Positions 44,130 to 61,241 are shown, counted from the stretch's first letter. The stretch: 64,000 nt of DNA from Agathobacter sp. (GCA_045123895.1 JBGVKW010000059.1:3360-67359), one strand, 5' to 3'. A program made the numbers and translations. Notes: generated from the sequence alone by a model not told the origin.

Positions 44130-45179
44130 ATGAATAGAAAACGGATTCAACTAATTGGTTTAATGATGCTTGTAGCTTCAATGATTTTATCCGGTTGTGG
44201 CCTTGGAAATGATTCGGTAACCCTTATAAATGTTTCTTATGACCCAACCAGAGAATTGTATCAGGATTACAATGAACTTTTTTCAAAGTACTGGAAAGAA
44301 AAAACAGGTCAGGAAATTGAGATTGTTCAGTCTCATGGAGGCTCAGGAAAACAGGCACTTGAGGTTTCGAATGGGCTTCCCGCAGATGTGGTTACTCTTG
44401 CGCTTGAAAAGGATGTGGATTCAATAGCAAGCCAGGGACTTATAGATGAAGGATTTACAGATGAGTTTAAGAATGATAGTGCACCTTATACCTCAACAAT
44501 AGTTTTTCTGGTGAGAAAAGGAAACCCAAAAGGAATTAATGACTGGGATGATTTGATTAAAGAGGATATTGGAGTAATTACACCTAATCCTAAGACTTCG
44601 GGAGGTGCCAGATGGAATTATCTTGCAGCCTGGTATTATTTCGAGAGTAAGGGACTAAATGAAGATGAAATCAAAGAAAATATGAAAAGCTTATATAAAA
44701 ATGTAGTGGTGCTTGATTCGGGAGCCAGAGGTTCAACTACTTCTTTTACGGAAAATGGTCAGGGTGATGTGTTAATTGCATGGGAGAACGAAGCGTTTCT
44801 TGCTATGACTGAGGAACCGGGAGAATATGAGATAGTTGTTCCTTCCGCTTCAATTTTATGCCAGCCTACAGTTGCTGTTGTAGATGATGTGGTATATGAG
44901 CATGGTACCGAAGAGGTGGCCCGTGAATATCTTGAATACCTGTATTCCAAGGAAGCGCAGAAAATAATTGGTGAGAATTACTACAGACCCGTTGATGCTC
45001 AGGTTGCAAAGACTATTACAAGAGAAGACGAAGGCAATGTGATAAAAGAAATACCACAGGATGGAAGATGGCTGGTAGATAGTATTGATTTGACTGATAT
45101 AAGTCATTTTGGTGGATGGGAAAAAGCATCAGATAAATTCTTTGATGAAGGAGCTATTTTTGATGAGATTTATGAATAA
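44130..45179 (+). CDS. sbp: Sulfate ABC transporter substrate-binding lipoprotein
   Basis: NVSYDPTRELY, QSHGGSGKQA, TPNPKTSGGARWNYLAAW, DSGARGST, WENEA. Confidence 0.95.
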   Translation: MNRKRIQLIGLMMLVASMILSGCGLGNDSVTLINVSYDPTRELYQDYNELFSKYWKEKTGQEIEIVQSHGGSGKQALEVSNGLPADVVTLALEKDVDSIASQGLIDEGFTDEFKNDSAPYTSTIVFLVRKGNPKGINDWDDLIKEDIGVITPNPKTSGGARWNYLAAWYYFESKGLNEDEIKENMKSLYKNVVVLDSGARGSTTSFTENGQGDVLIAWENEAFLAMTEEPGEYEIVVPSASILCQPTVAVVDDVVYEHGTEEVAREYLEYLYSKEAQKIIGENYYRPVDAQVAKTITREDEGNVIKEIPQDGRWLVDSIDLTDISHFGGWEKASDKFFDEGAIFDEIYE

Positions 45180-46011
45180 GAAAAGTAACAACAAAAGAAT
45201 AATACCAGGATTTAGATTATCCCTTGGCGTGACAGTTTCTATTCTTTCGATAGTTGTTCTGATACCAATTTGTTCACTGATTGTATATTCGGCGAAGCTA
45301 AGCCCAACGGAGTTTTTTGAAATAGTTACCAGAAAAAGAGCGTTGGCAAGCTATGGAGTAAGTCTTCTTACTTCGTTTCTTGCAGCTATAGTAAATGCAG
45401 TAATGGGAGTAATAATAGCGTGGGTTCTTGTCAGATATGATTTCCCAGGTAAGAAAGTTATGGATGGAATGATTGAACTTCCATTTGCACTTCCAACTGC
45501 GGTAGCAGGAATTGCACTTACTCATTTGTGTGTTCCCGAGGGTTGGATTGGAAAGTTTTTTGGAGTATTTGGAATAGATGTGGCTTACACGAAATTTGGA
45601 ATAACAATTGCACTTATTTTTATTGGGATTCCTTTTGTGGTAAGAAGTATTCAGCCGGTGCTTGAGAGAGTAGAGCCTGACTATGAGGAAGCTGCAAGTA
45701 TAATGGGAGCAAACAGAATTCAGATATTTTTCAAGGTGATTGTACCTGAGATAATTCCAGCTCTTGTGGCTGGTTTTACAATGGCTTTTGCAAGGGGCTT
45801 AGGAGAATATGGAAGCGTGGTTTTTATCGCAGGAAATATGCCATATAAGACAGAGATTACACCACTTCTTATCATGACAGAGCTTGAAGAATTTGACTAT
45901 GCAAGTGCAACAGCAATTGCACTGATGATGCTCCTTATTGCATTTGTGATTTTGTTTATAAACGCCATACTGCAAAGCTTTACATCAAAAGTTGTAAGCG
46001 GACTAGAATAG
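45172..46011 (+). CDS. cysT: Sulfate ABC permease CysT
   Basis: LPFALPTAVAGIAL, PFVVRS.QPV, ARGLGEYGSVVFIAGN. Confidence 0.93.
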   Translation: MNKKSNNKRIIPGFRLSLGVTVSILSIVVLIPICSLIVYSAKLSPTEFFEIVTRKRALASYGVSLLTSFLAAIVNAVMGVIIAWVLVRYDFPGKKVMDGMIELPFALPTAVAGIALTHLCVPEGWIGKFFGVFGIDVAYTKFGITIALIFIGIPFVVRSIQPVLERVEPDYEEAASIMGANRIQIFFKVIVPEIIPALVAGFTMAFARGLGEYGSVVFIAGNMPYKTEITPLLIMTELEEFDYASATAIALMMLLIAFVILFINAILQSFTSKVVSGLE

Positions 46012-46020
46012 GAGAAAAAG

Positions 46021-46842
46021 ATGGAACTAAGAAACAATAAAGGATTTGTCAAATGGCTGCTTATTGGAATCAGTGTTTTGTTCTTAACAGTAATGCTGAT
46101 ACTTCCACTTGTATATGTGTTATACACAGCGCTTCGCGAGGGACTTGGACCATTTGTAGCAGCTGTTACAGATAAATATGCATTAAAGTCAGTGCTTCTT
46201 ACAATTGAAGCCACAGTGATTGCTGTTGTAGTAAATACAGTTTTTGGACTTTTTGCTGCATGGACGATTACTAAATTTACTTTTAAAGGGAAAAAAATAA
46301 TATCAACACTAATCGATCTTCCACTTACAATATCTCCTGTAATAGCAGGTCTGATTTTCCTTTTGACATATGGAAGACAAAGTATTTTATATCCGGTTCT
46401 TCACAATCTAAAAATACATATTGTGTTTGCGGTACCGGGAATTGTGATGGCGACGGTTTTTGTTACTTTTCCTTTTATCTCAAGAGAACTTATTCCTGTA
46501 TTAACCTCGCAGGGAAAGGATGAGGAGGAAGCAGCAGCTCTTATGGGAGCTGGCGGTTTTAGAATTTTTAGGGAAATTACTTTTCCACATATAAAATGGG
46601 CGCTTTTATATGGAGTTGTCCTTTGTGCGGCAAGAGCGATGGGAGAGTTCGGTGCGGTATCGGTTTTATCAGGACATCTTCAGGGACTTACCAATACAAT
46701 GCCTCTTTACGTGGAACTTCTTTATCAAGGGTATGATTTTACAGGAGCGTTTGCAATGTCATCAATACTTGTGATCATGGCAGTGATTATTCTGATTCTA
46801 AGAAACGTATTGGAAAACAGAGGCAGGAAAGCAGAGGAGTAG
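46021..46842 (+). CDS. cysW: Sulfate ABC permease CysW
   Basis: DLPL.ISPVIAG, TFPF..REL, ARAMGEFGAVSV.SG. Confidence 0.93.
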   Translation: MELRNNKGFVKWLLIGISVLFLTVMLILPLVYVLYTALREGLGPFVAAVTDKYALKSVLLTIEATVIAVVVNTVFGLFAAWTITKFTFKGKKIISTLIDLPLTISPVIAGLIFLLTYGRQSILYPVLHNLKIHIVFAVPGIVMATVFVTFPFISRELIPVLTSQGKDEEEAAALMGAGGFRIFREITFPHIKWALLYGVVLCAARAMGEFGAVSVLSGHLQGLTNTMPLYVELLYQGYDFTGAFAMSSILVIMAVIILILRNVLENRGRKAEE

Positions 46843-46844
46843 AA

Positions 46845-47924
46845 ATGAGTGGAAACGAAAATGCATATGTGAGTATGCGGGATATAAATAAAAATTACGG
46901 TGACTACAAGGCATCAAGAAACGTAAATTTTGATATAGAAAAAGGAAAACTTGTGGCACTTCTCGGACCATCAGGAAGTGGAAAAACAACAATTCTTAGA
47001 ATGCTGGCAGGACTTGAAAATGCTGATTCAGGAGATATATTCATCGATGGAAAAAGAGTAAATGATACGCCGGCAAGTGAGAGAGGGATAGGCTTTGTTT
47101 TCCAAAGCTATGCACTTTTTAGATACAAGACGGTGTTTGAAAATATTGCGTTTGGATTGAAAATTGCAAAATGGAAAAAGGCTGACATTAAGGAAAGAGT
47201 TGATGAACTGATTGAGCTTGTGGGATTAAAAGGAATGGAGAAGAGATATCCCAATCAGTTATCAGGAGGTCAGCGACAGAGAGTTGCATTTGCCAGAGCA
47301 CTTGCTGTGCAGCCACAGCTTTTGCTTTTGGATGAGCCATTTGCTGCAATTGATGCAAAGGTTAGACAGGAGCTTAGAAGCTGGCTTAGGGAATTGATAA
47401 GTACAGTGGGAATTACAAGTATTTTTGTCACACATGATCAGGATGAAGCAATTGAAGTTGCGGATGAAATCATCATTACCAACAAAGGAAAAATTGAGCA
47501 GATAGGAACACCTCTTGAGATTTACCAGAATCCAAAGTCTGCTTTTGTAGCACAGTTTATCGGTCATCCAAATCATCTTGAAAACCCTTCTCAGTTTAAG
47601 GGATTTAGTCATGTGGAGCCGGGAATAGATGCTTTGATAAGACCTGAATTTATTACAGTTTCAAAGAAAAATGAGGAGTGTAAATATGCAGTTACAAGTG
47701 AAGAGGCAACTGTAAAAAGAGTTTCATTCAGAGGAAATTCTCTTGAGCTTACACTTGATGTGAGAGGTCAGGAGCTCATTGCAAACCGACAGTTAAATGA
47801 AGCCCCTATAGAAAAGGGAGAAAAAGTAAATGTATTTATTCATTCTATGTATGCGCTTAAAGGTGAAACAGCCTTTAATGTTCAAAACGGAATACTGATT
47901 AGTGAAGATTATACATTTATCTAG
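46845..47924 (+). CDS. cysA: Sulfate ABC ATP-binding protein CysA
   Basis: GPSGSGKT, FVFQSYALF, LSGGQRQRVAFARALA, LRSWLR. Confidence 0.93.
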   Translation: MSGNENAYVSMRDINKNYGDYKASRNVNFDIEKGKLVALLGPSGSGKTTILRMLAGLENADSGDIFIDGKRVNDTPASERGIGFVFQSYALFRYKTVFENIAFGLKIAKWKKADIKERVDELIELVGLKGMEKRYPNQLSGGQRQRVAFARALAVQPQLLLLDEPFAAIDAKVRQELRSWLRELISTVGITSIFVTHDQDEAIEVADEIIITNKGKIEQIGTPLEIYQNPKSAFVAQFIGHPNHLENPSQFKGFSHVEPGIDALIRPEFITVSKKNEECKYAVTSEEATVKRVSFRGNSLELTLDVRGQELIANRQLNEAPIEKGEKVNVFIHSMYALKGETAFNVQNGILISEDYTFI

Positions 47925-47934
47925 GAGAGAAAAA

Positions 47935-49623
47935 ATGGAATTAAAAAAGCTATATACAGATGTACTTATTATAGGTGGTGGTACAGCAGGCTGCTTTGCC
48001 GCTTATACATTAGGTAAGAATAAAAATATTAATGTGCTTATTGCAGAAAAGGCGAATATTAAAAGAAGCGGATGTCTTGCCGCCGGAGTAAATGCGATTA
48101 ATGCATACATAACTGAGGGAAGAAAGCCTCAGGATTATGTGGATTACTGTAAGGCTGATGCAAAGGGAATAGTAAGAGAGGATTTACTTTTATCCTTGTC
48201 AGAAAGATTAAACCATGTGACTGAAGTGATGGAAGCGCTTGGGCTTGTGATTTTAAAGGACGAAAATGGTAAATACGTAACTAGAGGAAACAGGAACATC
48301 AAGATTAATGGTGAAAACATTAAACCGATTCTTGCAGAGGCAGCAGAAAAACAGGAAAATGTCACAGTTTTAAATCATGTAAACATTACAGATTACATAG
48401 TAAAAGACAACAGAATTTATGGAGCCTATGGGTTTGATGTAAATGAAGAAAGGGCGTATGAGATTCATGCCAAAGCAGTTCTTATTGCAACAGGTGGAGC
48501 TGCCGGTCTTTACAGACCAAATAATCCGGGCTTTTCAAGACATAAAATGTGGTATCCGCCATTTAATACCGGAGCTGGATATGCGATGGGAATAAATGCC
48601 GGAGCAGAGATGACTACTTTTGAAATGAGATTTATCGCACTTCGCTGTAAAGACACGATTGCACCAACAGGTACAATTGCGCAGGGTGTACATGCGAAGC
48701 AGATGAATTCAAAGGGACAGATATATGAGACTGACTATGGTATTGCAACCTGTGAGAGATGTTACGGAACTACAAAGGAGAATCAGGAGGGCAGAGGACC
48801 TTGTTATCTGAAAACTGATGAGATTACAAAAGAGCAGGAAAAAGATTTGTACAAGGCATACCTTAACATGGCACCGAGTCAGACTTTAAAATGGCTTGAA
48901 GCTGGAAAAGGTCCATCAGAGCAAAATGTTGAGATTGAGGGAACTGAGCCATATATAGTAGGTGGTCATACAGCAAGTGGTTACTGGGTAGATAATGGCA
49001 GAGCAACCACAATCGAAGGACTTTATGCTGCAGGAGATGTGGCAGGTGGAGCACCACAAAAATATGTAACAGGAGCTTTAGCTGAAGGAGAAATTGCAGC
49101 AGAGTCAATTATAGAATACTTGGAAAATCGAACTAATATTTCTGATGGCCATGAGTTCTTTGCTGATGAAGATAAGCTTTCAGAATATAAGAAGTATTTT
49201 GATAATGAACCTTCATTACTGTCAATTGAACAGGTTGAGGAAACAATGCAAAAAATCATGGACCAGTATGCAGGAGGAATATCAAACAGCTATCAGTTCA
49301 ATGAGAGTCAGCTTGAGCTTGCAGATGAGAAGATAAAAAGTCTTTTTGCGGTGGTTGACAAGCTTCATGCAGACGATATGGATGAGCTGCTTTCAATCTA
49401 TGAAATCAAAGACAGATTAACCTGCTGCCAAACAGTTATCGCACATCTTAAAGCCAGAAAAGAGACAAGATGGCACAGTTTTGCAGAGAATATGGATTAT
49501 CCAAACAGCAGCGACGAATGGCTTAAATACGTAAACTCTGTGAAAAAGGGCGATGATATAGAGATTATTTTTAGAGATTTAGTGACAGGAGGACAGACAT
49601 ATGAGCATAGCAATCAAAAATAA
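47935..49623 (+). CDS. aprA: Adenylylsulfate (APS) reductase flavoprotein alpha subunit
   Basis: GGGTAG, KRSGCLAAG.NAIN, WYPPFNTG, E.RF, TEPYIVGGH, GLYAAGD, RKETRW; start at RBS-supported ATG 47935. Confidence 0.85.
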   Translation: MELKKLYTDVLIIGGGTAGCFAAYTLGKNKNINVLIAEKANIKRSGCLAAGVNAINAYITEGRKPQDYVDYCKADAKGIVREDLLLSLSERLNHVTEVMEALGLVILKDENGKYVTRGNRNIKINGENIKPILAEAAEKQENVTVLNHVNITDYIVKDNRIYGAYGFDVNEERAYEIHAKAVLIATGGAAGLYRPNNPGFSRHKMWYPPFNTGAGYAMGINAGAEMTTFEMRFIALRCKDTIAPTGTIAQGVHAKQMNSKGQIYETDYGIATCERCYGTTKENQEGRGPCYLKTDEITKEQEKDLYKAYLNMAPSQTLKWLEAGKGPSEQNVEIEGTEPYIVGGHTASGYWVDNGRATTIEGLYAAGDVAGGAPQKYVTGALAEGEIAAESIIEYLENRTNISDGHEFFADEDKLSEYKKYFDNEPSLLSIEQVEETMQKIMDQYAGGISNSYQFNESQLELADEKIKSLFAVVDKLHADDMDELLSIYEIKDRLTCCQTVIAHLKARKETRWHSFAENMDYPNSSDEWLKYVNSVKKGDDIEIIFRDLVTGGQTYEHSNQK

Positions 49624-49912
49624 ATCCTGCGTAGGCTGTGGCCGATGCGCCGAGGTTTGTCCGGGAAACCTGATAAAAATCATTGATGGCAGAGCCGTGA
49701 TTAAAAAGCCAAAGGATTGCTGGGGTTGTACATCATGCTTAAAAGAATGTAATACAGGTGCGATACAGTTTTTCCTGGGAGCAGATATCGGTGGAAAAGG
49801 AAGTACACTATCAGTTGAGAAAAAAGGCGACCTTCGAATATGGACTGTTACAGGAATAGATGGAAGCAAACAGACAATAGAAATAAGCGCAAAAGAATCA
49901 AATAAATACTAA
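49601..49912 (+). CDS. aprB: APS reductase Fe-S beta subunit
   Basis: [12 protein letters not shown] and [11 protein letters not shown]; overlaps aprA. Confidence 0.8.
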
Positions 49913-49931
49913 GATTTTGGAGGAATTAGAA

Positions 49932-50837
49932 ATGAGTAATTTATCACACTTAGATGAACTCGAAGCGGAAGCTATATATATTATGAGAGAAGTAGCGGCA
50001 GAATGTGAGAAACCGGTAATGCTTTATTCCATAGGAAAAGACAGCTCGGTAATGCTTCATCTGGCACTAAAGGCGTTTTATCCTGAGAGACCACCATTTC
50101 CATTTTTACATGTAAATACAACTTGGAAATTCAAGGAGATGATTGAGTTTAGGGATCATGTGGCAGAAAAATACGGACTTGAGATGCTTGAATATATCAA
50201 TGAAGAAGGCGTTAAGCAAGGAATTAATCCTTTTGACCATGGTTCAGCTTATACAGATATCATGAAGACACATGCATTAAAACAGGCGCTTGATAAATAT
50301 GGATTTACAGCTGCCTTTGGTGGTGGACGAAGAGACGAGGAGAAATCCCGTGCCAAGGAGAGAATTTTCTCATTTAGAAATTCAGCACATGCATGGGACC
50401 CTAAAAACCAGAGACCAGAAATGTGGAAGCTTTTTAATACCAAGCTTTTTAAAGGTGAGGAGGTTCGAGTGTTCCCACTTTCAAACTGGACAGAAAAAGA
50501 TATCTGGCAGTACATACAAAGAGAAAATATTGAGATTCCATCTCTTTATTTTGCAAAAGAAAGACCAGTTATTGAGAGAGACGGAAACATCATCATGGTT
50601 GATGACGACAGATTAAAAGAAAGACTTCTTCCTGGTGAGGAGATTGTAAATAAAAAAGTACGTTTCCGTACACTAGGCTGCTATCCTCTTACAGGAGGTG
50701 TGGAGTCTGATGCAGATACATTAGATGCCATTATTGATGAGACACTCAGTGCTGTTTCAAGTGAGAGAACAACAAGAGTAATTGACAACGAAGCAGCAGG
50801 ATCAATGGAAAGACGTAAACGTGAGGGATACTTCTAG
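49932..50837 (+). CDS. cysD: Sulfate adenylyltransferase subunit 2
   Basis: [42 protein letters not shown]. Confidence 0.96.
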
Positions 50838-50851
50838 AAAGGGGAATAAAA

Positions 50852-52489
50852 ATGCAGTTACTTAAATTTATTACATGTGGAAGCGTGGATGACGGAAAGT
50901 CAACACTTATAGGACATATATTATACGATTCAAAGCTTTTATACGCAGATCAGGAAAAGGCTTTGGAATTAGATTCAAAGGTAGGAAGCCGTGAGGGTAA
51001 AATCGATTACTCACTTCTTCTCGATGGACTTATGGCAGAGCGTGAGCAGGGTATCACAATCGATGTTGCCTACAGATATTTTACAACAGACAACAGAAGC
51101 TTTATCGTAGCAGATACTCCTGGACATGAAGAATATACAAGAAACATGGCTGTAGGAGCATCATTTGCAGATTTATCAATTATTCTTATCGATGCAAAAC
51201 AGGGAGTGCTTGTTCAGACAAAGCGTCACGCAAGAATCTGTGCTCTTATGGGTATAAAATACTTTGTTTTTGCAGTAAATAAAATGGACCTTGTTGACTA
51301 TAGCCAGAGTCGTTTTGATGAAATTGAAGAACAGATTAATGCACTCAAAGAAGAACTGGGACTTGAAAATGTAGTTATCATTCCTGTATCAGCAACTGAG
51401 GGAGATAATGTAACAAAGCGTTCAGATAGAATTGACTGGTATAAAGGACCTGTTTTATTGGAATACTTAGAACAGGTGGACATAAAGGAGAACAGTCGTG
51501 AAAAAGGCTTCTATATGCCTGTACAGAGAGTATGCCGTCCAAATCATACTTTTAGAGGTTTTCAGGGACAGATTGAAAATGGAAGCATTAAAGTAGGCGA
51601 TGAAATCACAACTTTACCAAGCAACGAAAAAGCTAAAGTAAAGAGTCTTTATGTAGCATCAACAGAAGTGGTTGAAGCATCTGAAGGCCAGCCGGTAACT
51701 ATTCAGCTAGACCGTGAGGTGGATGTTTCAAGAGGCTGTGTTTTTACTGTTGATTCAGGAGTATCGGTTACAAATTCTGTTGAGGCAACACTTCTTTGGA
51801 TGGATGACGTGGAGCTTCTTGAGGGAAAGAACTTTTTTGTTAAGCTTGGAACAAAGCTTATCCCGGGAACTGTTACCAAGATAAATCACACAATTGATGT
51901 AAACACAGGAGAGAAGAAAGAGACAACAACTCTGAGTAAAAACGAGATTGCAAGATGCGAAATTCTCTTTGCTGATTCAATAGTAGTTGATTTATTTGAG
52001 AATCATAAAGCACTTGGTGAGCTTATTCTTATAGACCGAGTTACTAACATGACAGCAGCCTGCGGTGTTGTTACAGAGCTTAGAAAAAATAACACAGATC
52101 TTGGAAGTGAAATTGACAGGGAAGCAAGAAGCAACTGGAAGAGTCAGCGTTCAGTGACAGTAGAATTTAATATTGGAAAAAATGGCGTCACACATGATTT
52201 TGTTGCAAAAGTTGAAAAGGCACTTAGCAACGAGGGAAGACACACATACCTTTACGAGCCAAAGAAGGCAGATGATGTCAAGCTGGTTGTAGAGCATCTG
52301 AATAATGCTGGTATAGTTGTCCTTCTTGCAGCAAACGAAGATGTAGATACATCTGTATTTAATGAGACGAGAACTTATTACAGTAATTGGATTGAAAAGG
52401 AAGACATTACTGTAGAAGAGGCAGTAGATTATGTGTATAAGGTTTCAGGAATACATGGAGAAGTGTCTACTGTAGGAGATTATATTTAG
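50852..52489 (+). CDS. cysN: Sulfate adenylyltransferase subunit 1 (GTPase) with degenerate CysC-like tail
   Basis: CGSVDDGKST, EREQGITIDVAYRYF, DTPGH, NKMD. Confidence 0.95.
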   Translation: MQLLKFITCGSVDDGKSTLIGHILYDSKLLYADQEKALELDSKVGSREGKIDYSLLLDGLMAEREQGITIDVAYRYFTTDNRSFIVADTPGHEEYTRNMAVGASFADLSIILIDAKQGVLVQTKRHARICALMGIKYFVFAVNKMDLVDYSQSRFDEIEEQINALKEELGLENVVIIPVSATEGDNVTKRSDRIDWYKGPVLLEYLEQVDIKENSREKGFYMPVQRVCRPNHTFRGFQGQIENGSIKVGDEITTLPSNEKAKVKSLYVASTEVVEASEGQPVTIQLDREVDVSRGCVFTVDSGVSVTNSVEATLLWMDDVELLEGKNFFVKLGTKLIPGTVTKINHTIDVNTGEKKETTTLSKNEIARCEILFADSIVVDLFENHKALGELILIDRVTNMTAACGVVTELRKNNTDLGSEIDREARSNWKSQRSVTVEFNIGKNGVTHDFVAKVEKALSNEGRHTYLYEPKKADDVKLVVEHLNNAGIVVLLAANEDVDTSVFNETRTYYSNWIEKEDITVEEAVDYVYKVSGIHGEVSTVGDYI

Positions 52490-52500
52490 AGGTAAACAGC

Positions 52501-53400
52501 ATGTATGATGTTTTAATTATCGGCAGTGGTCCAGCAGGACTATCTGCCGCAATTTATTCAAAAAGAGCAAATTTAAAAGTAGCAGTTCTTGAAAAAGAAT
52601 ATGCGGGAACAGGACAGATTGCAGAGAGTGAAAAAGTTGATAACTATCCGGGATTTTCTGAGATAAGTGGTTATGATCTGGGAGAAAAATTCAGAGAACA
52701 TGCACTAAGACTGGAGGTCCCTTTCATCGAGCATGAGGCAGTAAAAATAGAAAAAAATCAGGATAAAATCTGGGAAGTAAGTCTTGAAAACAAGGAAAAG
52801 CTTTATGCAAAAACAATCATCTATGCAACAGGTGCCTCTCCAAGAAAGCTTGGTGTAAAAGGAGAAGAGCAGCTTCTTGGAAAAGGGATTTCATTTTGTG
52901 CAGTATGTGATGGAGCCTTTTATAAAGATAAAACTGTTGCAGTAATCGGTGGAGGAAATACAGCAGTAGATGATGCTCTTTTACTCTCGGACATTGCACA
53001 GAAGGTATATCTGATTCACAGAAGAGATGAATTTAGAGCATCAAAAAAAACAGTAGAACTGGTAAAGCAAAAAGAAAATGTAGAAATTATCCTTAATGCT
53101 TCTGTAAAAGAAGTTGAGGGAGAAAAGCTTGTAACAGGAATTGTCTTAGAAGATGGAAGAAAAATAGAAGTTTCAGGTATTTTTGAAGCTATCGGACAGG
53201 CACCGTCAACGAAGCTGATTTCGACACTTACCTCACTGGATGAAAGTGGATATGTAGTAGCAGATGAGGATGGAAAAACTGACAACGAGGGATTATTTGT
53301 GGCAGGCGATGTACGAACCAAGAAACTTCGTCAGGTTGTGACAGCAGTATCCGACGGAGCCAATGCTGTTTCAAGCGTAGAGGAGTATTTGTATTCATAA
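52501..53400 (+). CDS. trxB: Thioredoxin-disulfide reductase
   Basis: GSGPAG, CAVCDG, GGGNTA, AGD. Confidence 0.9.
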   Translation: MYDVLIIGSGPAGLSAAIYSKRANLKVAVLEKEYAGTGQIAESEKVDNYPGFSEISGYDLGEKFREHALRLEVPFIEHEAVKIEKNQDKIWEVSLENKEKLYAKTIIYATGASPRKLGVKGEEQLLGKGISFCAVCDGAFYKDKTVAVIGGGNTAVDDALLLSDIAQKVYLIHRRDEFRASKKTVELVKQKENVEIILNASVKEVEGEKLVTGIVLEDGRKIEVSGIFEAIGQAPSTKLISTLTSLDESGYVVADEDGKTDNEGLFVAGDVRTKKLRQVVTAVSDGANAVSSVEEYLYS

Positions 53401-53685
53401 ACTTTTCACTTATATATGATTTGTTGAGGGATGGACAGAAAGGCAGCCGGGACCCCTTATTATCTATATTTTTGACGAGCCGTGTGCAAGTTATATGCTG
53501 ATTATCAGCTTATGATTGCCCGGGAAAGCCTCGTTTAAGCGTAGCGCGTTTTGGCTTTCCCGCGGCATAATAAACATAGCTGATAACAGCATTTACTTGC
53601 ACTAGGCTAAGGAAACTTTATAGATAATAAGGGGTCCCGGCTGCGTTTCAGTCCGTCCCTATATAAAAATATAAGTGACAAGTTT
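53399..53685. repeat. ~285-bp nested imperfect palindrome (long hairpin element)
   Basis: 42-bp arms 53427-53468 / 53619-53660 with 3 mismatches, plus inner and outer paired blocks. Confidence 0.85.
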
Positions 53686-53687
53686 GT

Positions 53688-53787
53688 TATAAATAATATT
53701 TATAACTCATCATAAGTAAACAGTATTGGACGAAGGAAAAAATATGTCCTATAATTCTATACAGATAAAACCCATAGAGATACTAGG
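53688..53787 (+). promoter_or_regulatory. metY operon promoter with the same two motifs as the sulfate operon
   Basis: TATAA-N7-TTATA 53688-704; TTGGAC 53726-31, 18 bp, TATAAT 53750-55; CCCA-N9-TAGG 53771-87. Confidence 0.6.
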
Positions 53788-53807: not shown

Positions 53808-55040
53808 ATGAATTTTAACACTAGTTTATTACATGCTGGTGTAGACAGGAATGAATGCAAAGGAGCGACCCTTACTCCTATCTATCAGTCAAGTGCATTT
53901 GAACAGTCCACGGCAGCAGATTTGGAAAATATTTTTAATAATAAATCTCCGGGATACTGTTATACACGAGTAGGTAATCCAACAATTACTGCTTTTGAAA
54001 ACAGAATCACAAAGCTTGAGAATGGAGTGGCAACTATAGCGTGCGCTTCAGGAATGGCAGCAATATTTAATTCCATTACCAATATTGTTCAAAGCGGAAA
54101 TGAGATTATCTCAAGTGCCAGTCTCTATGGTGGAACGATAGATTTGTTTACAGATTTGGAGGCTTTTGGAATCACAACCAGATATGTCGAGAACAACAAC
54201 TGGGAGGAGATAGAAGCAGCCTTTAATGAAAATACCAGAGCTTTTTTTGCAGAGACAATTGGAAATCCAAGACTTGATGTAACTGATGTAGAAAAGCTTG
54301 CGGATATCTGTCATAAGCATAATGTTCCACTTATTGTAGACAATACAGTTGCAACTGCTTATCTTTATAAGCCATTAGAGCACGGAGCTGACATCGTAGT
54401 AAATTCTTCTTCCAAATATATAAACGGAAGCAGTAACTCAATCAGCGGAGTGTTGACGGATTCCGGTAAGTTCAAATGGGATAAGGAAAAATATCCGCTT
54501 TTGGCACCATATGCAAAATTCGGACCATTTGCTTTTACAGCAAAGCTTCGCAATGGATTATTTAGAAATACAGGTGCCTGTCTGGCACCGCAGAATGCAT
54601 TTTTAAATCAGCTGGGACTTGAAACTTTGGGACTTCGAATGGAAAGACAGTGTAGTAATGCAATAAAATTGGCGAGCTGGTTAGACAGTGAATATCCGGA
54701 ATTTGAAGTGAATTTTCCGGGATTAAAGAGCAGTCCGTGGTATGAAATAGCAGACAGACAGTTTAAGAATGGATATGGTGCAATCATTACTTTAAGAGTA
54801 AAGACCAAGGAAAATGCATTTAAGCTTATTGATAATCTAAAGATTGCGTACAAGCTATCCAATATTGGAGATACCAAAACACTGGTAATTCATCCAGCAT
54901 CAACCATCAGTCTTCACAGCACGAAAAAGCAGCAGGAAGAGGCAGGAGTATTTGATGATCTTATCAGAATAAGTGTTGGTATAGAAGATGTGGATGATTT
55001 GATCGAAGATTTTAAACAGGCCATTTTGAAATTGAATTAG
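53808..55040 (+). CDS. metY: O-acetylhomoserine sulfhydrylase (PLP, Cys/Met metabolism family)
   Basis: PIYQSS, YTRVGNPT, LYGGT, VDNT, SSSKYING, IHPAST, RISVGIEDVDDLIEDF. Confidence 0.85.
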   Translation: MNFNTSLLHAGVDRNECKGATLTPIYQSSAFEQSTAADLENIFNNKSPGYCYTRVGNPTITAFENRITKLENGVATIACASGMAAIFNSITNIVQSGNEIISSASLYGGTIDLFTDLEAFGITTRYVENNNWEEIEAAFNENTRAFFAETIGNPRLDVTDVEKLADICHKHNVPLIVDNTVATAYLYKPLEHGADIVVNSSSKYINGSSNSISGVLTDSGKFKWDKEKYPLLAPYAKFGPFAFTAKLRNGLFRNTGACLAPQNAFLNQLGLETLGLRMERQCSNAIKLASWLDSEYPEFEVNFPGLKSSPWYEIADRQFKNGYGAIITLRVKTKENAFKLIDNLKIAYKLSNIGDTKTLVIHPASTISLHSTKKQQEEAGVFDDLIRISVGIEDVDDLIEDFKQAILKLN

Positions 55041-55076
55041 ATAGTTATTGGAAAGTTAAGGAGGAATAAAGGAATT

Positions 55077-55970
55077 ATGGCAGATAATAACGTGGAAAAG
55101 AAGAAAGTTGATTATGCTTCGTTAAAAAAAGGTGGATTCATGAGACAGAAACAGAAAAATAATTTTTCGCTTCGTCTTGCAGTTGTTGGAGGAAATATGA
55201 CAGCAGAGCAGCTTAAGGTTGTGGCAGATGTGGCAGAAAAATATGGACATGGATATGTGCACATGACATCACGCCAGAGTGTCGAAATTCCATTTATTCA
55301 ATTTGATGATGTGGAAGATGTTAGAGATGTACTGGCCCAGGGTGGTGTTAAGCCGGGTGTTTGTGGACCAAGAGTAAGAACAGTTACAGCCTGTCAGGGC
55401 TCAGAGATTTGTCCTAGTGGATGTATTGATACATATACTCTTGCAAAGGAATTTGACGAGAGATACTTTGGAAGAGAGCTTCCACATAAGTTTAAGTTTG
55501 GTGTAACAGGATGCCAGAACAACTGTCTTAAGACCGAAGAAAATGATTTCGGAGTAAAGGGTGGAATGGTTGTAAACTGTGATACTGAAAGCTGTATCGG
55601 TTGTAGTGTATGTGCTAAGGCATGTCGTGAAGGTGCCATCAGTATGGTAGATGGAAAACCTGTATTAGAGGAGAGCAAATGTAATAATTGTGCAAGATGT
55701 GTTAAGAGCTGTCCTGTAGATGCATGGAAAGGCGAGCCGGGATATATCGTATCCTTTGGTGGAACATTTGGAAACAAGATTTATAAGGGAGAAGAACTTC
55801 TTCCAATCATAAAAGATAAAGAGACATTATTTAGAGTTGCAGATGCTGCAATAGGATTTTTTGAAGATTATGCAAACGCAGGAGAGAGATTTAGAGCAAC
55901 ACTTCAAAGAGTTGGAGATGATGAGTTAAAGAAAAGAGTTCAGGCAGCATACGAAGGAAAAGCAGTTTAA
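55077..55970 (+). CDS. Half-size siroheme sulfite reductase with 2x[4Fe-4S] ferredoxin insertion (AsrC/Sir-like)
   Basis: HMTSRQ, CQGSEIC (C-X5-C), KFKFGVTGCQNNC (C-X3-C), CIGCSVCAKAC, CNNCARCVKSC. Confidence 0.88.
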   Translation: MADNNVEKKKVDYASLKKGGFMRQKQKNNFSLRLAVVGGNMTAEQLKVVADVAEKYGHGYVHMTSRQSVEIPFIQFDDVEDVRDVLAQGGVKPGVCGPRVRTVTACQGSEICPSGCIDTYTLAKEFDERYFGRELPHKFKFGVTGCQNNCLKTEENDFGVKGGMVVNCDTESCIGCSVCAKACREGAISMVDGKPVLEESKCNNCARCVKSCPVDAWKGEPGYIVSFGGTFGNKIYKGEELLPIIKDKETLFRVADAAIGFFEDYANAGERFRATLQRVGDDELKKRVQAAYEGKAV

Positions 55971-55997
55971 TAAAAATGAAATGAGAGGAATAGAAAA

Positions 55998-56249
55998 ATG
56001 GCAGATTTAGATTTTAAAATAGATGATGAGGTGGATATCACAGATAAGGTTTGTCCACTTACTTTTGTAAAAGCGAAGGTTACACTTGATGAATTAGATG
56101 ACGGAGAGGTGCTCGCAATCAGAATGAATGATGGAGAGCCGGTACAGAATGTTCCAAGAAGTATAAAAGAGGAGGGACATCAGATTCTTAAGTTAGCAGA
56201 CAACGAAGATGGAACTTATACACTTTATGTGAGAAAGGTGGAAGATTAG
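55998..56249 (+). CDS. TusA/SirA family sulfurtransferase
   Basis: VDITDKVCPLTFVKAK, DGEVL. Confidence 0.9.
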   Translation: MADLDFKIDDEVDITDKVCPLTFVKAKVTLDELDDGEVLAIRMNDGEPVQNVPRSIKEEGHQILKLADNEDGTYTLYVRKVED

Positions 56250-56250
56250 T

Positions 56251-56568
56251 ATGGCAGCAAGAATTTCAGGAGATGAATTTGAGGCAAAAGTAATAAATGC
56301 TGATAAGCCGGTTCTTGTAGATTTTTACTCAGATTCCTGTGTGGCATGTAAAAGACTTGCACCGGTGCTTGGACAGGCTGAGGATGATTTTGAAGACAGT
56401 ATTTATGTTTATAAGGTAAATACCAATTTTGATGCTGAACTGGCACAGAAATATGAGATAACAGCAAATCCTACACTTTTATTTGTAAAAGGCGGACAGG
56501 TGATAGACAGAAAGGTCGGAGCATTAAGACCTGATGAATTGAATTCATGGATTGAAGAAAATATTTAA
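56251..56568 (+). CDS. Thioredoxin family protein
   Basis: VLVDFYSDSCVACK, ANPTLLF. Confidence 0.85.
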   Translation: MAARISGDEFEAKVINADKPVLVDFYSDSCVACKRLAPVLGQAEDDFEDSIYVYKVNTNFDAELAQKYEITANPTLLFVKGGQVIDRKVGALRPDELNSWIEENI

Positions 56569-56589
56569 TTTAGAAAAAGGAGATATATC

Positions 56590-56796
56590 ATGACTATTAC
56601 AGTTGCAGGTGTAAAAAAAGAATATAAGGATGGACTTACTCTTCCTGAGTTAATTGAGGCAGAAAATGTTGAGATGCCAGAGTATGTTTCAGTTTCTATT
56701 AATGAAGAATTCGTTGAGAGTGACAAGAAGGAGAGCACTGTTTTAAAAGAGGGAGACAATGTTGAATTCTTATACTTCATGGGAGGAGGACAGTAA
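56590..56796 (+). CDS. ThiS/HcyS-like sulfur carrier with capped C-terminus (..MGGGQ)
   Basis: Ubiquitin-fold size; LKEGDNVEFLYFMGGGQ. Confidence 0.9.
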   Translation: MTITVAGVKKEYKDGLTLPELIEAENVEMPEYVSVSINEEFVESDKKESTVLKEGDNVEFLYFMGGGQ

Positions 56797-56798
56797 AA

Positions 56799-57635
56799 AT
56801 GGCAATGACAGATGAACAGATTGAACGTTATTCACGCCATATCATCTTAAAAGAAGTCGGAGCAAAAGGGCAGAAAAAGCTTTTAAATGCAAAGGTTCTT
56901 ATTATTGGTGCAGGCGGACTTGGAGCACCGGCAGCTATGTATCTTGCTGCGGCAGGTGTTGGAACAATTGGAATTGTTGATGCAGATGAGGTTGACCTTT
57001 CTAATTTACAGAGACAGATTATTCACGGAACTAACGATATAGGAAAGGCAAAAGTAAAATCAGCAAAAGAGACAATTAATGCAATGAATCCTGATGTGAC
57101 AGTTAATACATACAGAATGTTCGTGGATTCTACAAATATCAGAGAGCTTATCAGAGAATACGATTTTGTAATTGATGGAACAGACAATTTCCCAGCCAAG
57201 TTCCTTATAAATGATGCCTGTGTAATGGAGAAAAAACCATTTTCACATGCCGGTATCATTCGTTTCAAGGGACAGCTTATGACGTATGTGCCAGGAGAAG
57301 GCCCATGCTACAGATGTGTATTTAAAAATCCACCACCAAAGGATGCAGTTCCAACATGTAAGCAGGCCGGTGTAATCGGAGCAATGGGAGGAGTGATTGG
57401 CTCACTTCAGGCTATGGAAGCAATTAAATACATAATAGGAGTAGGTGAGCTATTAACAGGAAAGCTTCTTACATATGATGCGCTTACAATGGAATTTCAC
57501 ACAGTTAAGCTTCCGAAGAACACAAGTGGATGTGCAGTCTGTGGAGACAATCCTACTATCGTTGAGCTTATTGATTACGAGCAGGAGGTTTGTGAGGAGA
57601 CTGCAGGAAGGTTTGAGCAAAGAGACAAACAGTAA
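56799..57635 (+). CDS. ThiF/MoeB/HcyF-like adenylyltransferase (E1-like)
   Basis: RYSRH, GAGGLG, SNLQRQ, PCYRC, CAVC. Confidence 0.93.
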   Translation: MAMTDEQIERYSRHIILKEVGAKGQKKLLNAKVLIIGAGGLGAPAAMYLAAAGVGTIGIVDADEVDLSNLQRQIIHGTNDIGKAKVKSAKETINAMNPDVTVNTYRMFVDSTNIRELIREYDFVIDGTDNFPAKFLINDACVMEKKPFSHAGIIRFKGQLMTYVPGEGPCYRCVFKNPPPKDAVPTCKQAGVIGAMGGVIGSLQAMEAIKYIIGVGELLTGKLLTYDALTMEFHTVKLPKNTSGCAVCGDNPTIVELIDYEQEVCEETAGRFEQRDKQ

Positions 57636-57650
57636 TTAGAGGGATAAAAA

Positions 57651-58085
57651 ATGGGAATAATCAGAATTGAGTATCATCTGTATGATGATATTGTAAGATA
57701 TGCAAAGGAAAATCTTCCCGAGGAGGCTTGCGGACTTATTGCAGGAATAGAGGATGAAGAAGGAAACTGTGAAATCAAAAAAGTATATTTTCTTGAGAAC
57801 ACAGACCACTCCAACGAGCATTTTACACTAAGTCCCAAGGATCAGATGACAGCAATAAAGGATATGAGGGAGAATTCCCTCAAACCTTTAGGCAACTGGC
57901 ATTCTCACCCAGAGTCTCCATCAAGACCATCAGTAGAAGATGTTAAGCTTGCATATGACAAGAATGCAAGGTATCTGATTTTATCATTGATGGCTGAGAA
58001 TCCTGTTCTTAATGCTTTCCATATTGAAAACGGAGAATGGGAAAAAGAAGATTTACGAATTTATTCAAAAGAATATTTTTTCTAG
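57651..58085 (+). CDS. JAB/MPN+ (M67) metalloprotease, HcyD/Mec-like
   Basis: PEEACG, WHSHP...PS.ED. Confidence 0.92.
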   Translation: MGIIRIEYHLYDDIVRYAKENLPEEACGLIAGIEDEEGNCEIKKVYFLENTDHSNEHFTLSPKDQMTAIKDMRENSLKPLGNWHSHPESPSRPSVEDVKLAYDKNARYLILSLMAENPVLNAFHIENGEWEKEDLRIYSKEYFF

Positions 58086-58136: not shown

Positions 58137-58712
58137 ATGGCATATTTTCCAATGTATGTTGATATAACAAATAAGGACTGCCTGATTGTAGGCGGTGGAA
58201 AAGTAGCACTTCGCAAGGTTGAAGTGCTACTTGATTTTAAGGCAAAAGTTTGTGTTGTAGCGCAGGAGGTCTGTGAGCAGATAAAGGCCTTAGAGGATGA
58301 AGGAAAAATTACGGTACTTGAGAGAGAATTTATAGATAAGGATATAGAAAAACGTTTTCTTGTGGTTGCTGCAACGAATCAAAAGGAGTTAAACCATAGG
58401 ATTTCAATACTGGCGTCACAAAAAAATATTCCAGTTAATGCAGTTGATCAAATAGAAGACTGCTATTTTATTTTTCCAGCGTATGTAAAGGAGAAGGAGC
58501 TTGTGGCTTCTTTTTCAAGCAGTGGAAAAAGCCCTGTTACAGTACAGTATCTAAAGCAAAAGGAAAAAGAGATACTGACTCCTAGACTTGGAGAGATAAA
58601 TGATTATCTTGGGGCTATTAGACAGGAAATCATAGAAAAATATGATGATGAAAAGCAAAGAAGAGCGGCGTTTAAAGAAATATTGGAAAAAGCCCTTTCG
58701 GAAGAAATATAA
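58137..58712 (+). CDS. Precorrin-2 dehydrogenase/sirohydrochlorin ferrochelatase (SirC/Met8/CysG N-terminal type)
   Basis: YFPMYVDI, VGGGKVALRK, VNAVD, FIFPA, SSSGKSP. Confidence 0.88.
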   Translation: MAYFPMYVDITNKDCLIVGGGKVALRKVEVLLDFKAKVCVVAQEVCEQIKALEDEGKITVLEREFIDKDIEKRFLVVAATNQKELNHRISILASQKNIPVNAVDQIEDCYFIFPAYVKEKELVASFSSSGKSPVTVQYLKQKEKEILTPRLGEINDYLGAIRQEIIEKYDDEKQRRAAFKEILEKALSEEI

Positions 58713-58731
58713 AACAGGAAACAGGTAAAAA

Positions 58732-59634
58732 ATGCATTATATTATTGGAACAAGAGGTTCAAAACTTGCACTTTTGCAGACTGAATCGGTAATGAAAAAA
58801 TTAAAAAAAGCTTATCCTGATGATTCTTTTTCTATAAAAATCATAAAGACAACAGGTGATAAAAATCAGATTCAGGCTTTGGATAAGATAGGTTCAAAAG
58901 GTCTTTTCACAGATGAAATAGAGAAGGAACTTTTATCGGGAGAGATTGCCATGGCTGTCCATTCCATGAAGGATATGCCAGATACCCCACAGAAAGGGCT
59001 TACTTTTTCAAAAGCATGGAAGCGGGAAGATCCAAGAGATGTGTTAGTTTTAAAAAATCATAAAAGTCTTGATGAACTTCCAATAGGTGCGACAATTGCT
59101 ACGGGAAGTAAGAGAAGAGCATATCAGATAAAGAAGATTCGACCGGACATAAATATCGTGGGAATACGGGGGAATGTTGATACCAGAATTAGAAAATTAC
59201 GGGATGAAAATGAAAATCTCGATGGTATCGTACTAGCAGCAGCAGGCTTAAATAGGATTGGAAGAGCGGATGAGATTACACAGTACTTAGAGCCTGACGA
59301 AATGATTCCAGCGCCTTCACAGGGGACACTCGCCCTTGAGGTCAAAGAGGATAATGTAACATTGCTTGAGAAGCTTAATGCATTATCAGATAATCAAAGT
59401 CAGCTTGCAGTAGACGCAGAGAGAGGTTTTTTAAAGGCAATAGGAGGAGATTGTCATTTACCAATCGGTGCATACCTCAATGAACAAAAAGAATTGATGG
59501 CACTATTTGGAGATGAAAATGGTTCGGTGCTCGCAAGGACTGTTGTTAAGCTTTCTGGCGAGTCAAAGGAAGAAATAGAAAACGCAGTACAAAAGGCTGT
59601 AAAGGAAATAAAACTACAGCTTGAGGATAAATAG
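58732..59634 (+). CDS. hemC: Hydroxymethylbilane synthase
   Basis: GTRGSKLAL, AVHSMKD, RGNVDTR, PAPSQG, GGDCH. Confidence 0.95.
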   Translation: MHYIIGTRGSKLALLQTESVMKKLKKAYPDDSFSIKIIKTTGDKNQIQALDKIGSKGLFTDEIEKELLSGEIAMAVHSMKDMPDTPQKGLTFSKAWKREDPRDVLVLKNHKSLDELPIGATIATGSKRRAYQIKKIRPDINIVGIRGNVDTRIRKLRDENENLDGIVLAAAGLNRIGRADEITQYLEPDEMIPAPSQGTLALEVKEDNVTLLEKLNALSDNQSQLAVDAERGFLKAIGGDCHLPIGAYLNEQKELMALFGDENGSVLARTVVKLSGESKEEIENAVQKAVKEIKLQLEDK

Positions 59635-59635
59635 G

Positions 59636-61156
59636 ATGACAGGAAAAGTTACGCTTATTGGAGCAGGACCGGGTAATCCGGATTTGCTAACCATTAAAGG
59701 AAAAGAAAAAATTGAACAGGCGGATTGCATAATCTATGACAGACTTGCATCACCAAAGCTTTTAGGCTATGCAAAAAAGGACTGTGAATTTATATATGTT
59801 GGAAAAGAGAACCACCATCATACAATGAAGCAGGACGATATTAATGAACTTCTGTATCAGAAGGCACTTTTGGGGAAAGATATTGTCCGATTGAAGGGCG
59901 GAGACCCTTATGTGTTTGGAAGAGGTGGAGAGGAGGCTCTTTTTCTCATAGAAAGAAATATTGAAGTGGAAGTGGTTTCCGGAATAAGCTCTTCCATTGC
60001 GGCACTTGCTGATGCCGGTATTCCAATTACCCACAGAGGTCTGTCGAAGGGCTTTCAGGTTATTACCGGACACAGTAGAAAGGATAAGCCGGCAGAGATT
60101 GATTATTCACAGCTGATGGACCCCACAGTGACGTATGTGTTTTTGATGGGGCTTTCCCATGTAAGGGAAATTGCAAACGGATTAATTGAAGCGGGAAGAG
60201 ACAAAAATACTCCTGCAGCAGTTGTATCAAACGGAACCACTGCCAGACAGAGAAAGTCTGTAGGAACACTTGAAAATATTGCGGAGCTTGTGGAAAGAGA
60301 CCAGCTGCCGTTACCTGCCATTATCGTTGTGGGGGATGTTGTTACTTTATCAGATAAACTGAATTTTTTTGAGAAGCGAGTATTATTTGGGCAAAAGTTT
60401 CTGGTTCCGTATATTGAGTCCTTTAAATTTGATTTTTCAAAGGGGATTATTCCTGAAAAAAAGGAGGATTACTTTGATTCTAAGCTTGAAGTGACCCTTA
60501 GGAAAAATGGGGCACATGTAGATACTCTTTTGATAGGAAAAATCAAACCTGTTGAAATAGAAAGGTCTGTATTTTTAAATCTACTAAAGGCAGACTGGTT
60601 TATTTTTACAAGTCAGAATGCTGTAAATTCCTTTTTCTGGAATCTAAGGAAAAATGGTCTTGATGCAAGGTCAATTGGGGATGCAAAGATTGCAGTTGTT
60701 GGAAGCCGTACCAATCAGTGTCTGGAGAAATTTGGGCTGTGTGCAGATTTGATTCCGGACAAACAGACAGCAAAAGATTTGTGCGAAGCATTGTTGGATT
60801 TGATTAATGACAACAAAAAAATTGTTTTTTTCTCAGGAAAAGAATCCAGTCCAGAAATAGAGGCGATGTTATCAGATAATAATGAACTAACAAAACAGGT
60901 ATGCTATGTAAATGAAGTCGTCTCGAATGAGGGAACTGTAATTCATTATGAGGATTATGATGGAGTTGTTTTCACAAGTGCATCATCTGTAAGAAGGTCG
61001 CTTAGTCTTTCGGATGGAACAAGACCAAAGAAGGTTTTTTCTATTGGACCGAGTTGTTCTATGGAAGTGGAAAAGCATGGAATTACTGAGTTTGAAGAGG
61101 CAAAAGAGCACAATTATAAGGGCTTAATTGACATGGTTATTGGTAGGAATAAATAA
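59636..61156 (+). CDS. cobA: Uroporphyrinogen-III C-methyltransferase / synthase fusion (CobA-HemD)
   Basis: GAGPG, RLKGGDP..FGRG, FTSQNAV, FTSASSV. Confidence 0.9.
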   Translation: MTGKVTLIGAGPGNPDLLTIKGKEKIEQADCIIYDRLASPKLLGYAKKDCEFIYVGKENHHHTMKQDDINELLYQKALLGKDIVRLKGGDPYVFGRGGEEALFLIERNIEVEVVSGISSSIAALADAGIPITHRGLSKGFQVITGHSRKDKPAEIDYSQLMDPTVTYVFLMGLSHVREIANGLIEAGRDKNTPAAVVSNGTTARQRKSVGTLENIAELVERDQLPLPAIIVVGDVVTLSDKLNFFEKRVLFGQKFLVPYIESFKFDFSKGIIPEKKEDYFDSKLEVTLRKNGAHVDTLLIGKIKPVEIERSVFLNLLKADWFIFTSQNAVNSFFWNLRKNGLDARSIGDAKIAVVGSRTNQCLEKFGLCADLIPDKQTAKDLCEALLDLINDNKKIVFFSGKESSPEIEAMLSDNNELTKQVCYVNEVVSNEGTVIHYEDYDGVVFTSASSVRRSLSLSDGTRPKKVFSIGPSCSMEVEKHGITEFEEAKEHNYKGLIDMVIGRNK

Positions 61157-61158
61157 TT

Positions 61159-61241
61159 CCTACTAAAATGATAGGAAACTATTGATAAGCGAATATTTTA
61201 GTGATAGAATACCGAGTGTGATATAAATCACACTCGGTATT
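61159..61241 (+). promoter_or_regulatory. CCTA-N9-TAGG motif and a perfect 15-bp inverted repeat containing TGTGA-N6-TCACA
   Basis: TTCCTA-ctaaaatga-TAGGAA 61157-77; AATACCGAGTGTGAT/ATCACACTCGGTATT 61208-41. Confidence 0.6.

Follow-up and report, generated by a model that had tools for sequence, protein, structure and literature searches.

A probable protein-thiocarboxylate route to homocysteine in a conserved sulfur-assimilation operon of Agathobacter sp.

Analysis of a 64,000-nt stretch of Agathobacter sp. DNA (GCA_045123895.1 JBGVKW010000059.1:3360-67359; hereafter the window, with coordinates counted from its start) indicated that a seven-gene operon, metY-sir-tusA-trx-carrier-E1-jab, probably specifies the conversion of sulfite to homocysteine through a protein thiocarboxylate, along the lines of the Wolinella HcyS/HcyF/HcyD/Sir/MetY pathway. 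From sequence comparison and analogy with the Wolinella system, we put the probability of this reading at roughly 80%. In such a route, a small ThiS-like carrier protein would be trimmed by a JAB protease, activated by an E1-like adenylyltransferase and loaded with sulfur, which the O-acetylhomoserine sulfhydrylase MetY would then transfer to its substrate. The original prediction for this DNA had proposed a Wolinella-type relay extended by TusA and thioredoxin (Trx). The relay itself gains support from the gene calls, from the variable tails that follow an MGGG motif in the carriers, from carrier-E1 and JAB-Sir fusions and from a loop deletion that the operon MetY shares with the Wolinella MetY structure 3ri6; the description of TusA as an extension did not survive, for reasons given below.

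The operon consists of seven plus-strand open reading frames (ORFs) between 53808 and 58085, with intergenic gaps of 1-36 nt (Table 1). Catalytic residues are intact in all seven proteins, and neither thiG nor moaE is found within the operon, so the earlier description of these genes as one operon lacking thiG and moaE was accurate. About 110 of the 120 related loci that were collected carry this set of genes, and the arrangement is therefore far beyond chance. Individual loci, contigs and genomes are referred to below by numbers prefixed with L, C and G, respectively.

The carrier is a ThiS/MoaD-fold protein in which the Gly-Gly end is masked by a C-terminal residue. Its match to TIGR01683 exceeds the cut-off, and the last position of this profile falls on Gly67, leaving Gln68 as an extra residue; likewise, the terminal GG of Thermus ThiS aligns with carrier Gly66-Gly67. 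All 33 of the related carriers examined feature an invariant MGGG followed by a tail of one to seven residues that varies in sequence (Q, R, C, F, QR, AR, AY, SF, SHGFNR and others). At one locus (L096:8748-9797), the carrier is fused in frame to E1 within a 350-aa ORF with Pfam ThiS and ThiF domains, where MGGG is followed by a linker, and a free Gly end therefore requires cleavage after GGG. The same carrier family is represented in the PDB by a 'ThiS' (2k5p/3cwi), whose chain ends VEFLYFMGGGK and thus carries a one-residue cap. This protein, which we take to be from Geobacter metallireducens, is annotated as a thiamine protein, and the closest solved structure to the operon JAB (2kks, 1.4e-31) is annotated as an uncharacterised JAB; neither entry has functional work attached.

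The gene for the E1-like adenylyltransferase adjoins that of the carrier, starting 2 nt after it. The ThiF domain spans residues 11-246 of the 278-aa protein, with no rhodanese match, and the closest solved structures are MoeB (1jw9) and ThiF (1zud). Two CxxC pairs, Cys187 and Cys265, the latter in an IDYEQxxC tail, are invariant in 110/110 homologs. In MoeZ/Uba4-type enzymes, this C-terminal IDYEQxxC segment (here residues 255-278, window 57560-57635) forms the linker ahead of the rhodanese domain. The protease encoded at the end of the operon has a complete JAB motif (E...HSHPxxxxxxxSxxD), and its Glu25, His84, His86, Ser94 and Asp97 are invariant across 111 of 111 homologs, which indicates a JAMM/JAB metalloprotease with an intact metal site.

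The siroheme sulfite reductase (Sir) of the cluster is most similar, among solved structures, to the C-terminal half of the F420-dependent sulfite reductase 7np8 (2.2e-37), and its cluster-binding Cys residues are conserved in 85/85 homologs. At L097:9014-10288, and likewise in G294 and G334, one 424-aa protein combines JAB with the small Sir, with a TusA gene and metY directly 3'. The two remaining small proteins also retain their expected sites: Cys19-Pro20 of TusA is invariant in all 105 homologs, and the CxxC of Trx, which reads CVAC in the window (family motif FYSDSC[IV]PCK), is invariant in 73/73.

MetY scores 467.6 bits against TIGR01326, slightly below the cut-off of 495. A loop of 9-11 residues with the sequence PDPSYHGxxY is absent from the window MetY and from 83 of 83 MetYs linked to a carrier or TusA gene, and the Wolinella MetY (3ri6), which is also the best PDB match for MetY residues 190-290, lacks it as well. 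The loop is kept by a second MetY encoded on contig C86 of the same genome, by the two remaining unlinked MetYs in the loci and by the structures 8sf5, 7kb0 and FUB7. Five further MetYs that fall outside the linkage criterion are also loop-less, at least three of which adjoin another JAB-E1 pair (L037, L158) or a JAB gene (L081). According to PMC8191291, the sulfur donor of 3ri6 is a protein thiocarboxylate, not bisulfide. We take the deletion in common with 3ri6 as the best available sequence evidence that the operon MetY draws its sulfur from the carrier, and by loop absence this MetY belongs to the carrier-using kind. Absence of the PDPSYHG loop is a simple sequence marker that separates carrier-linked from free-sulfide MetYs. 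In three Lachnospiraceae loci (L037:539-3343, L158:2354-5322 and L173:4086-6821), a second loop-less metY lies beside a second jab-thiF pair, upstream of thiS-thiF-jab-tusA. This additional set may represent a second carrier system.

The related loci were drawn from three samples. The family sample comprised one genome per genus of the same family, and the phylum-wide sample contained JAB in 58 of 400 genomes. For the third, the motif [VI]EFLYFMG was scanned against 185,579 species genomes, which returned at least 599 stretches, at least 593 of them confirmed as encoding this carrier type; only the 80 closest loci were kept. A survey of Lachnospiraceae had been suggested alongside the original prediction, and the operon does recur there, with JAB in 21 of the 200 genera of the family sample. 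The closest relatives come from rumen and gut Lachnospiraceae, including metagenome-assembled genomes (MAGs) from yak, deer and reindeer and members of Pseudobutyrivibrio, Lachnobacterium, Lachnospira, Agathobacter and Roseburia. The host is a rumen or gut Lachnospiraceae, not the gut Clostridium that had been proposed. The cluster also occurs in Ruminococcus, in other Oscillospiraceae and in Treponema and Fibrobacter MAGs, making the pathway common among fibre-degraders of the rumen and gut. Six loci (L104, L112, L116, L120, L123 and L134) are labelled Bacteroides, Parabacteroides, Bacteroidaceae or Thermoguttaceae and carry Lachnospiraceae-type clusters with 79-84% carrier identity; the probable cause is mis-binning or mislabelling of MAG contigs, not gene transfer.

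Gene presence was counted across loci with enough flanking DNA to judge, namely 13 from the family sample, 15 from the phylum sample and 57 from the carrier scan. TusA was present in 13/13, 15/15 and 56/57 of these, respectively (84 of 85 overall), and JAB was found at the same frequencies (13/13, 15/15 and 56/57). Sir followed with 13/13, 15/15 and 45/57, then MetY with 12/13, 10/15 and 49/57, and Trx with 7/13, 0/15 and 43/57. The most constant partner of carrier, E1 and JAB is therefore TusA, not Sir, which draws attention to the thiocarboxylate-forming step. Clusters of the form metY-tusA-(trx)-carrier-E1-JAB, with no Sir, are found in Fibrobacter (L160, L162, L171 and L177) and in some Lachnospiraceae and Ruminococcus, and the relay can therefore take sulfur from a source other than a linked Sir. 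In these Fibrobacter loci and in the Sir-less clusters at L124, L144, L157 and L168, metY directly precedes tusA. A trxB gene was confined to loci with trx (4/4 in the family sample and 32/32 in the carrier scan). The atypical Trx and TrxB are frequent additions to the cluster in Lachnospiraceae, Oscillospiraceae and Treponema of gut and rumen, and many lineages clearly do without Trx.

A pathway can be proposed from these data. Homology suggests that sulfate would be imported by Sbp-CysTWA, activated by CysDN and reduced to sulfite by an AprAB-like enzyme, all encoded upstream of the operon, and that the small siroheme Sir would bring sulfite to the level of sulfide. JAB would trim Gln68 from the 68-aa carrier precursor to expose a terminal Gly, as the variable tails, the carrier-E1 fusion and the Wolinella precedent suggest, and E1, judging from its homologs, would adenylate this Gly. 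Conversion of the adenylate to a thiocarboxylate could occur directly, by attack of sulfide, which is possible, or through a persulfide on TusA Cys19, which we think likely here. In the second case, the TusA persulfide would yield a carrier acyl-disulfide, and the dedicated Trx and TrxB would reduce it. The TusA-Trx step is favoured because TusA is the partner found most consistently, even in the absence of Sir, because E1 has lost its rhodanese domain and because Trx and TrxB travel with the cluster; retention of the IDYEQxxC linker by a rhodanese-less E1 also fits replacement of rhodanese by TusA. Finally, by analogy with Wolinella, the loop-less MetY would couple the thiocarboxylate to O-acetylhomoserine made by MetA, for which a stand-alone gene is present in the genome, and JAB would free homocysteine.

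A stricter form of this scheme, in which the sulfur never leaves protein, appears unlikely. Here, Sir would pass zero-valent sulfur to TusA Cys19, in the manner of DsrAB-DsrC, the resulting persulfide would attack the adenylate, and Trx, TrxB and NAD(P)H would cleave the acyl-disulfide. If this were so, TusA, Trx and TrxB would together stand in, as a module, for the rhodanese domain lost from a MoeZ-type E1.

Several observations weigh against the proposed route. Compared over its whole length, the operon MetY is nearer to the free-sulfide enzymes 8sf5 (371 bits) and 7kb0 (364) than to the Wolinella MetY (306), so 3ri6 does not stand out when the full sequences are compared. In vitro, the Wolinella system reportedly needs neither TusA nor Trx, sulfide being sufficient (Krishnamoorthy and Begley 2011). 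Trx is absent from 6/13 family loci and 15/15 phylum loci and is not essential. In addition, the 2.83-Mb genome, which is 99.4% complete, encodes a canonical stand-alone MetY (the loop-bearing C86 protein, 429 aa and 39% identical to the operon MetY) and two CysK proteins, with both cysK genes on contigs other than that of the operon. These show that a free-sulfide route exists alongside the carrier route, and sulfide is probably released too. No second Sir was found in the genome, and that of the operon presumably also feeds the two CysK and the canonical MetY, unless those enzymes use environmental sulfide; the earlier claim that no free H2S is released is thus not upheld.

The whole-length similarity of MetY, and the need of two CysK and a canonical MetY for free sulfide when only one Sir was found, would also suit a scheme in which Sir simply frees sulfide for an ordinary MetY. 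The carrier, E1, JAB and TusA would then serve another sulfur transfer, such as cofactor or tRNA thiolation, and would be co-located through a shared supply. We consider this improbable, given that the loop is missing from every linked MetY and from the Wolinella enzyme but present in unlinked canonical MetYs, that a second, canonical MetY already serves the free-sulfide route, and that clusters with no Sir still join metY to tusA, carrier, E1 and JAB.

The logic of JAB, carrier and E1 is the same as in the CysO-CysM-Mec+-MoeZ system of Mycobacterium tuberculosis, where a protein thiocarboxylate is the sulfide donor to a pyridoxal phosphate (PLP) enzyme and a JAMM protease frees the amino acid. 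Enzymes of the TIGR01326 family are, from their family names, often bifunctional with O-acetylhomoserine and O-acetylserine, and MetY could in principle act on O-acetylserine or O-phosphoserine to yield cysteine, or cysteine together with homocysteine. This outcome is quite improbable. The Mycobacterium system differs in having a PLP enzyme of CysM fold that makes cysteine and an E1, MoeZ, with a rhodanese domain, and CysO ends in GG without a cap. The PLP enzyme linked to the carrier here is of the Cys_Met_Meta_PP family, not the CysM/CysK fold, two CysK genes lie elsewhere in the genome, and the only characterised relative with the loop deletion makes homocysteine; the locus is thus not a CysO-CysM-Mec+ system. 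Ubiquitin-like conjugation of the SAMP/UbaA/desampylase type, in which the carrier would modify sulfur-assimilation enzymes instead of carrying sulfur, has in its favour matches to the NCBIfam SAMP-activating E1 (337 bits) and desampylase (68.8 bits) models and the dual function of archaeal SAMPs, but is very improbable, as both scores lie under the curated cut-offs (450 and 130 bits), the genes occur in strict linkage with MetY, TusA and Sir, E2 and E3 genes are lacking, and the MetY signature argues for sulfur transfer.

Other roles for ThiS-like and TusA-like proteins were assessed from the rest of the genome. A role in thiamine biosynthesis (ThiS-ThiF-ThiG thiazole formation) was rejected because the genome has its own thiS-thiF-thiG set on contig C60 and thiG is not in the operon. 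Similarly, a molybdopterin (MoaD-MoaE) role was rejected, as a search of the genome gave no match for MoaE. The best NCBIfam and PDB matches of the TusA-like protein are YeeD-like and weak (32 bits against a cut-off of 147.5), and a part in YeeE/YeeD (TsuA/TsuB) thiosulfate uptake was rejected because the genome encodes no YeeE-type PF04143 transporter. A housekeeping thioredoxin with a WCGPC site is encoded on C48, and a second TrxB is also present in the genome.

The thiocarboxylate chemistry of HcyS-Ala, HcyD, HcyF, Sir and MetY in Wolinella succinogenes was reportedly shown by Krishnamoorthy and Begley in 2011 (JACS 133:379; cited in PMC5764234), and the Wolinella MetY structure is 3ri6 (Tran et al. 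2011). As in Wolinella, the Agathobacter locus features a capped ThiS-like carrier, a JAMM protease, a rhodanese-less E1, Sir and MetY, clustered beside genes for the conversion of sulfate to sulfite. The two differ in the cap, which is Gln after GGG here and reportedly Ala in Wolinella, in the dedicated atypical thioredoxin of the operon and the TrxB of the upstream operon, and in the AprAB-like enzyme for adenosine phosphosulfate (APS) reduction.

The pathway itself is already known, and was predicted for Clostridia in 2006 (PMC1779556); the operon described here is a well conserved, ordinary example that is very common in gut and rumen anaerobes. The type 4e neighbourhood was reported from Wolinella, Geobacter and several low-GC Gram-positive bacteria including clostridia (Table 1 row 4e, Iyer, Burroughs and Aravind 2006, PMC1779556). 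In this neighbourhood, SirA (equivalent to TusA) is 'always' present, the E1 'always lacks' rhodanese, and SirA may replace rhodanese (PMC1779556). All of the components listed for type 4e are found at the Agathobacter locus: the carrier, JAB, a rhodanese-less E1 with SirA/TusA beside it, a sulfate ABC transporter, ATP sulfurylase, sulfite reductase and O-acetylhomoserine sulfhydrylase. It departs from type 4e in having an AprAB-like reductase instead of a CysH-type phosphoadenosine phosphosulfate (PAPS) reductase, and no APS kinase gene. The portrayal of TusA as an addition to the Wolinella relay was mistaken, since SirA is constant in type 4e, Wolinella included (PMC1779556), and TusA is nearly as constant in the loci collected here. 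The word thioredoxin has no occurrences in PMC1779556. A literature search found no paper on either TusA or Trx in this pathway, in agreement with the original prediction that their roles are uncharacterised, and gave nothing relevant on HcyF or HcyD.

This second route to homocysteine is missed by most pathway databases and by automated annotation, which usually labels the carrier, E1 and JAB as ThiS, MoeB/ThiF and 'Mov34', respectively. Its recognition matters for the prediction of methionine prototrophy and sulfate use in rumen and gut communities.

The seven-gene operon is embedded in a 19-kb sulfur island, flanked upstream by an operon for sulfate uptake and sulfate reduction and downstream by siroheme genes (Table 1). 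Genes of the upstream operon overlap or lie no more than 14 nt apart, and a terminator-like hairpin precedes sbp. The AprA-like flavoprotein matches NF005331 at 935 bits; together with the ferredoxin (window 47902-52489), it apparently replaces CysH for APS reduction. No separate APS kinase gene was found at the locus, and many related loci pair the cluster with the same aprAB-cysDN block. The siroheme genes begin 51 nt 3' of jab, and a consensus scan detected no terminator-like site before 61208, so these genes probably share a transcript with metY...jab. Beyond the hairpin at that position come hemB and a gene for a DUF819 membrane protein; the latter (window 62248-63348) begins immediately after the hemB stop codon, a pairing also seen in L041.

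Table 1. Coordinates of the seven-gene operon and its flanking features within the window
Feature	Coordinates	Strand	Description	Evidence
metY	53808..55040	+	410 aa; O-acetylhomoserine sulfhydrylase, loop-less carrier-linked subtype	Pfam PF01053 Cys_Met_Meta_PP 1.2e-120
sir	55077..55970	+	297 aa; small siroheme sulfite reductase with inserted 2x[4Fe-4S] ferredoxin	Pfam NIR_SIR_ferr, NIR_SIR, Fer4
tusA	55998..56249	+	83 aa; TusA/SirA-like, single Cys19	Pfam TusA 7.9e-20
trx	56251..56568	+	105 aa; atypical thioredoxin, active site SCVAC	Pfam Thioredoxin 5.2e-24
carrier	56590..56796	+	68 aa; ThiS-like precursor ending EFLYFMGGG-Q	TIGR01683 58 bits
E1	56799..57635	+	278 aa; ThiF/MoeB-type adenylyltransferase, no rhodanese domain	Pfam ThiF 1.3e-89
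jab	57651..58085	+	144 aa; JAB/JAMM metalloprotease	Prok-JAB 5.5e-22
sbp-cysT-cysW-cysA, aprA-like, aprB-like ferredoxin, cysD, cysN, trxB	44130..53400	+	upstream operon	NCBIfam/Pfam matches
promoter-like site ahead of metY	53727..53755	+	TGGACG-17-TATAAT	consensus scan, 10/12 matches, pattern match only
sirC, hemC, cobA-hemD	58137..61156	+		NCBIfam TIGR01470, TIGR00212, TIGR01469 and HEM4
terminator-like hairpin	61208..61241	+	15-bp stem; closes metY...cobA-hemD unit	consensus scan

A search of the whole window against Rfam at the gathering threshold gave no match, and no S-box or T-box control was found. The trxB-metY gap of 407 nt holds a promoter-like site, of a class whose total count is no greater than in shuffled sequence, and a 285-nt near-perfect hairpin (window 53399-53685, z = -15.9). 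At least 13 further copies of this hairpin, sharing 80-93% identity, are scattered over 10 other contigs; as a dispersed repeat, it is unlikely to be an operon-specific regulator. Two copies of the repeat flank cysK on contig C82 (16961-17114 and 19738-19896).

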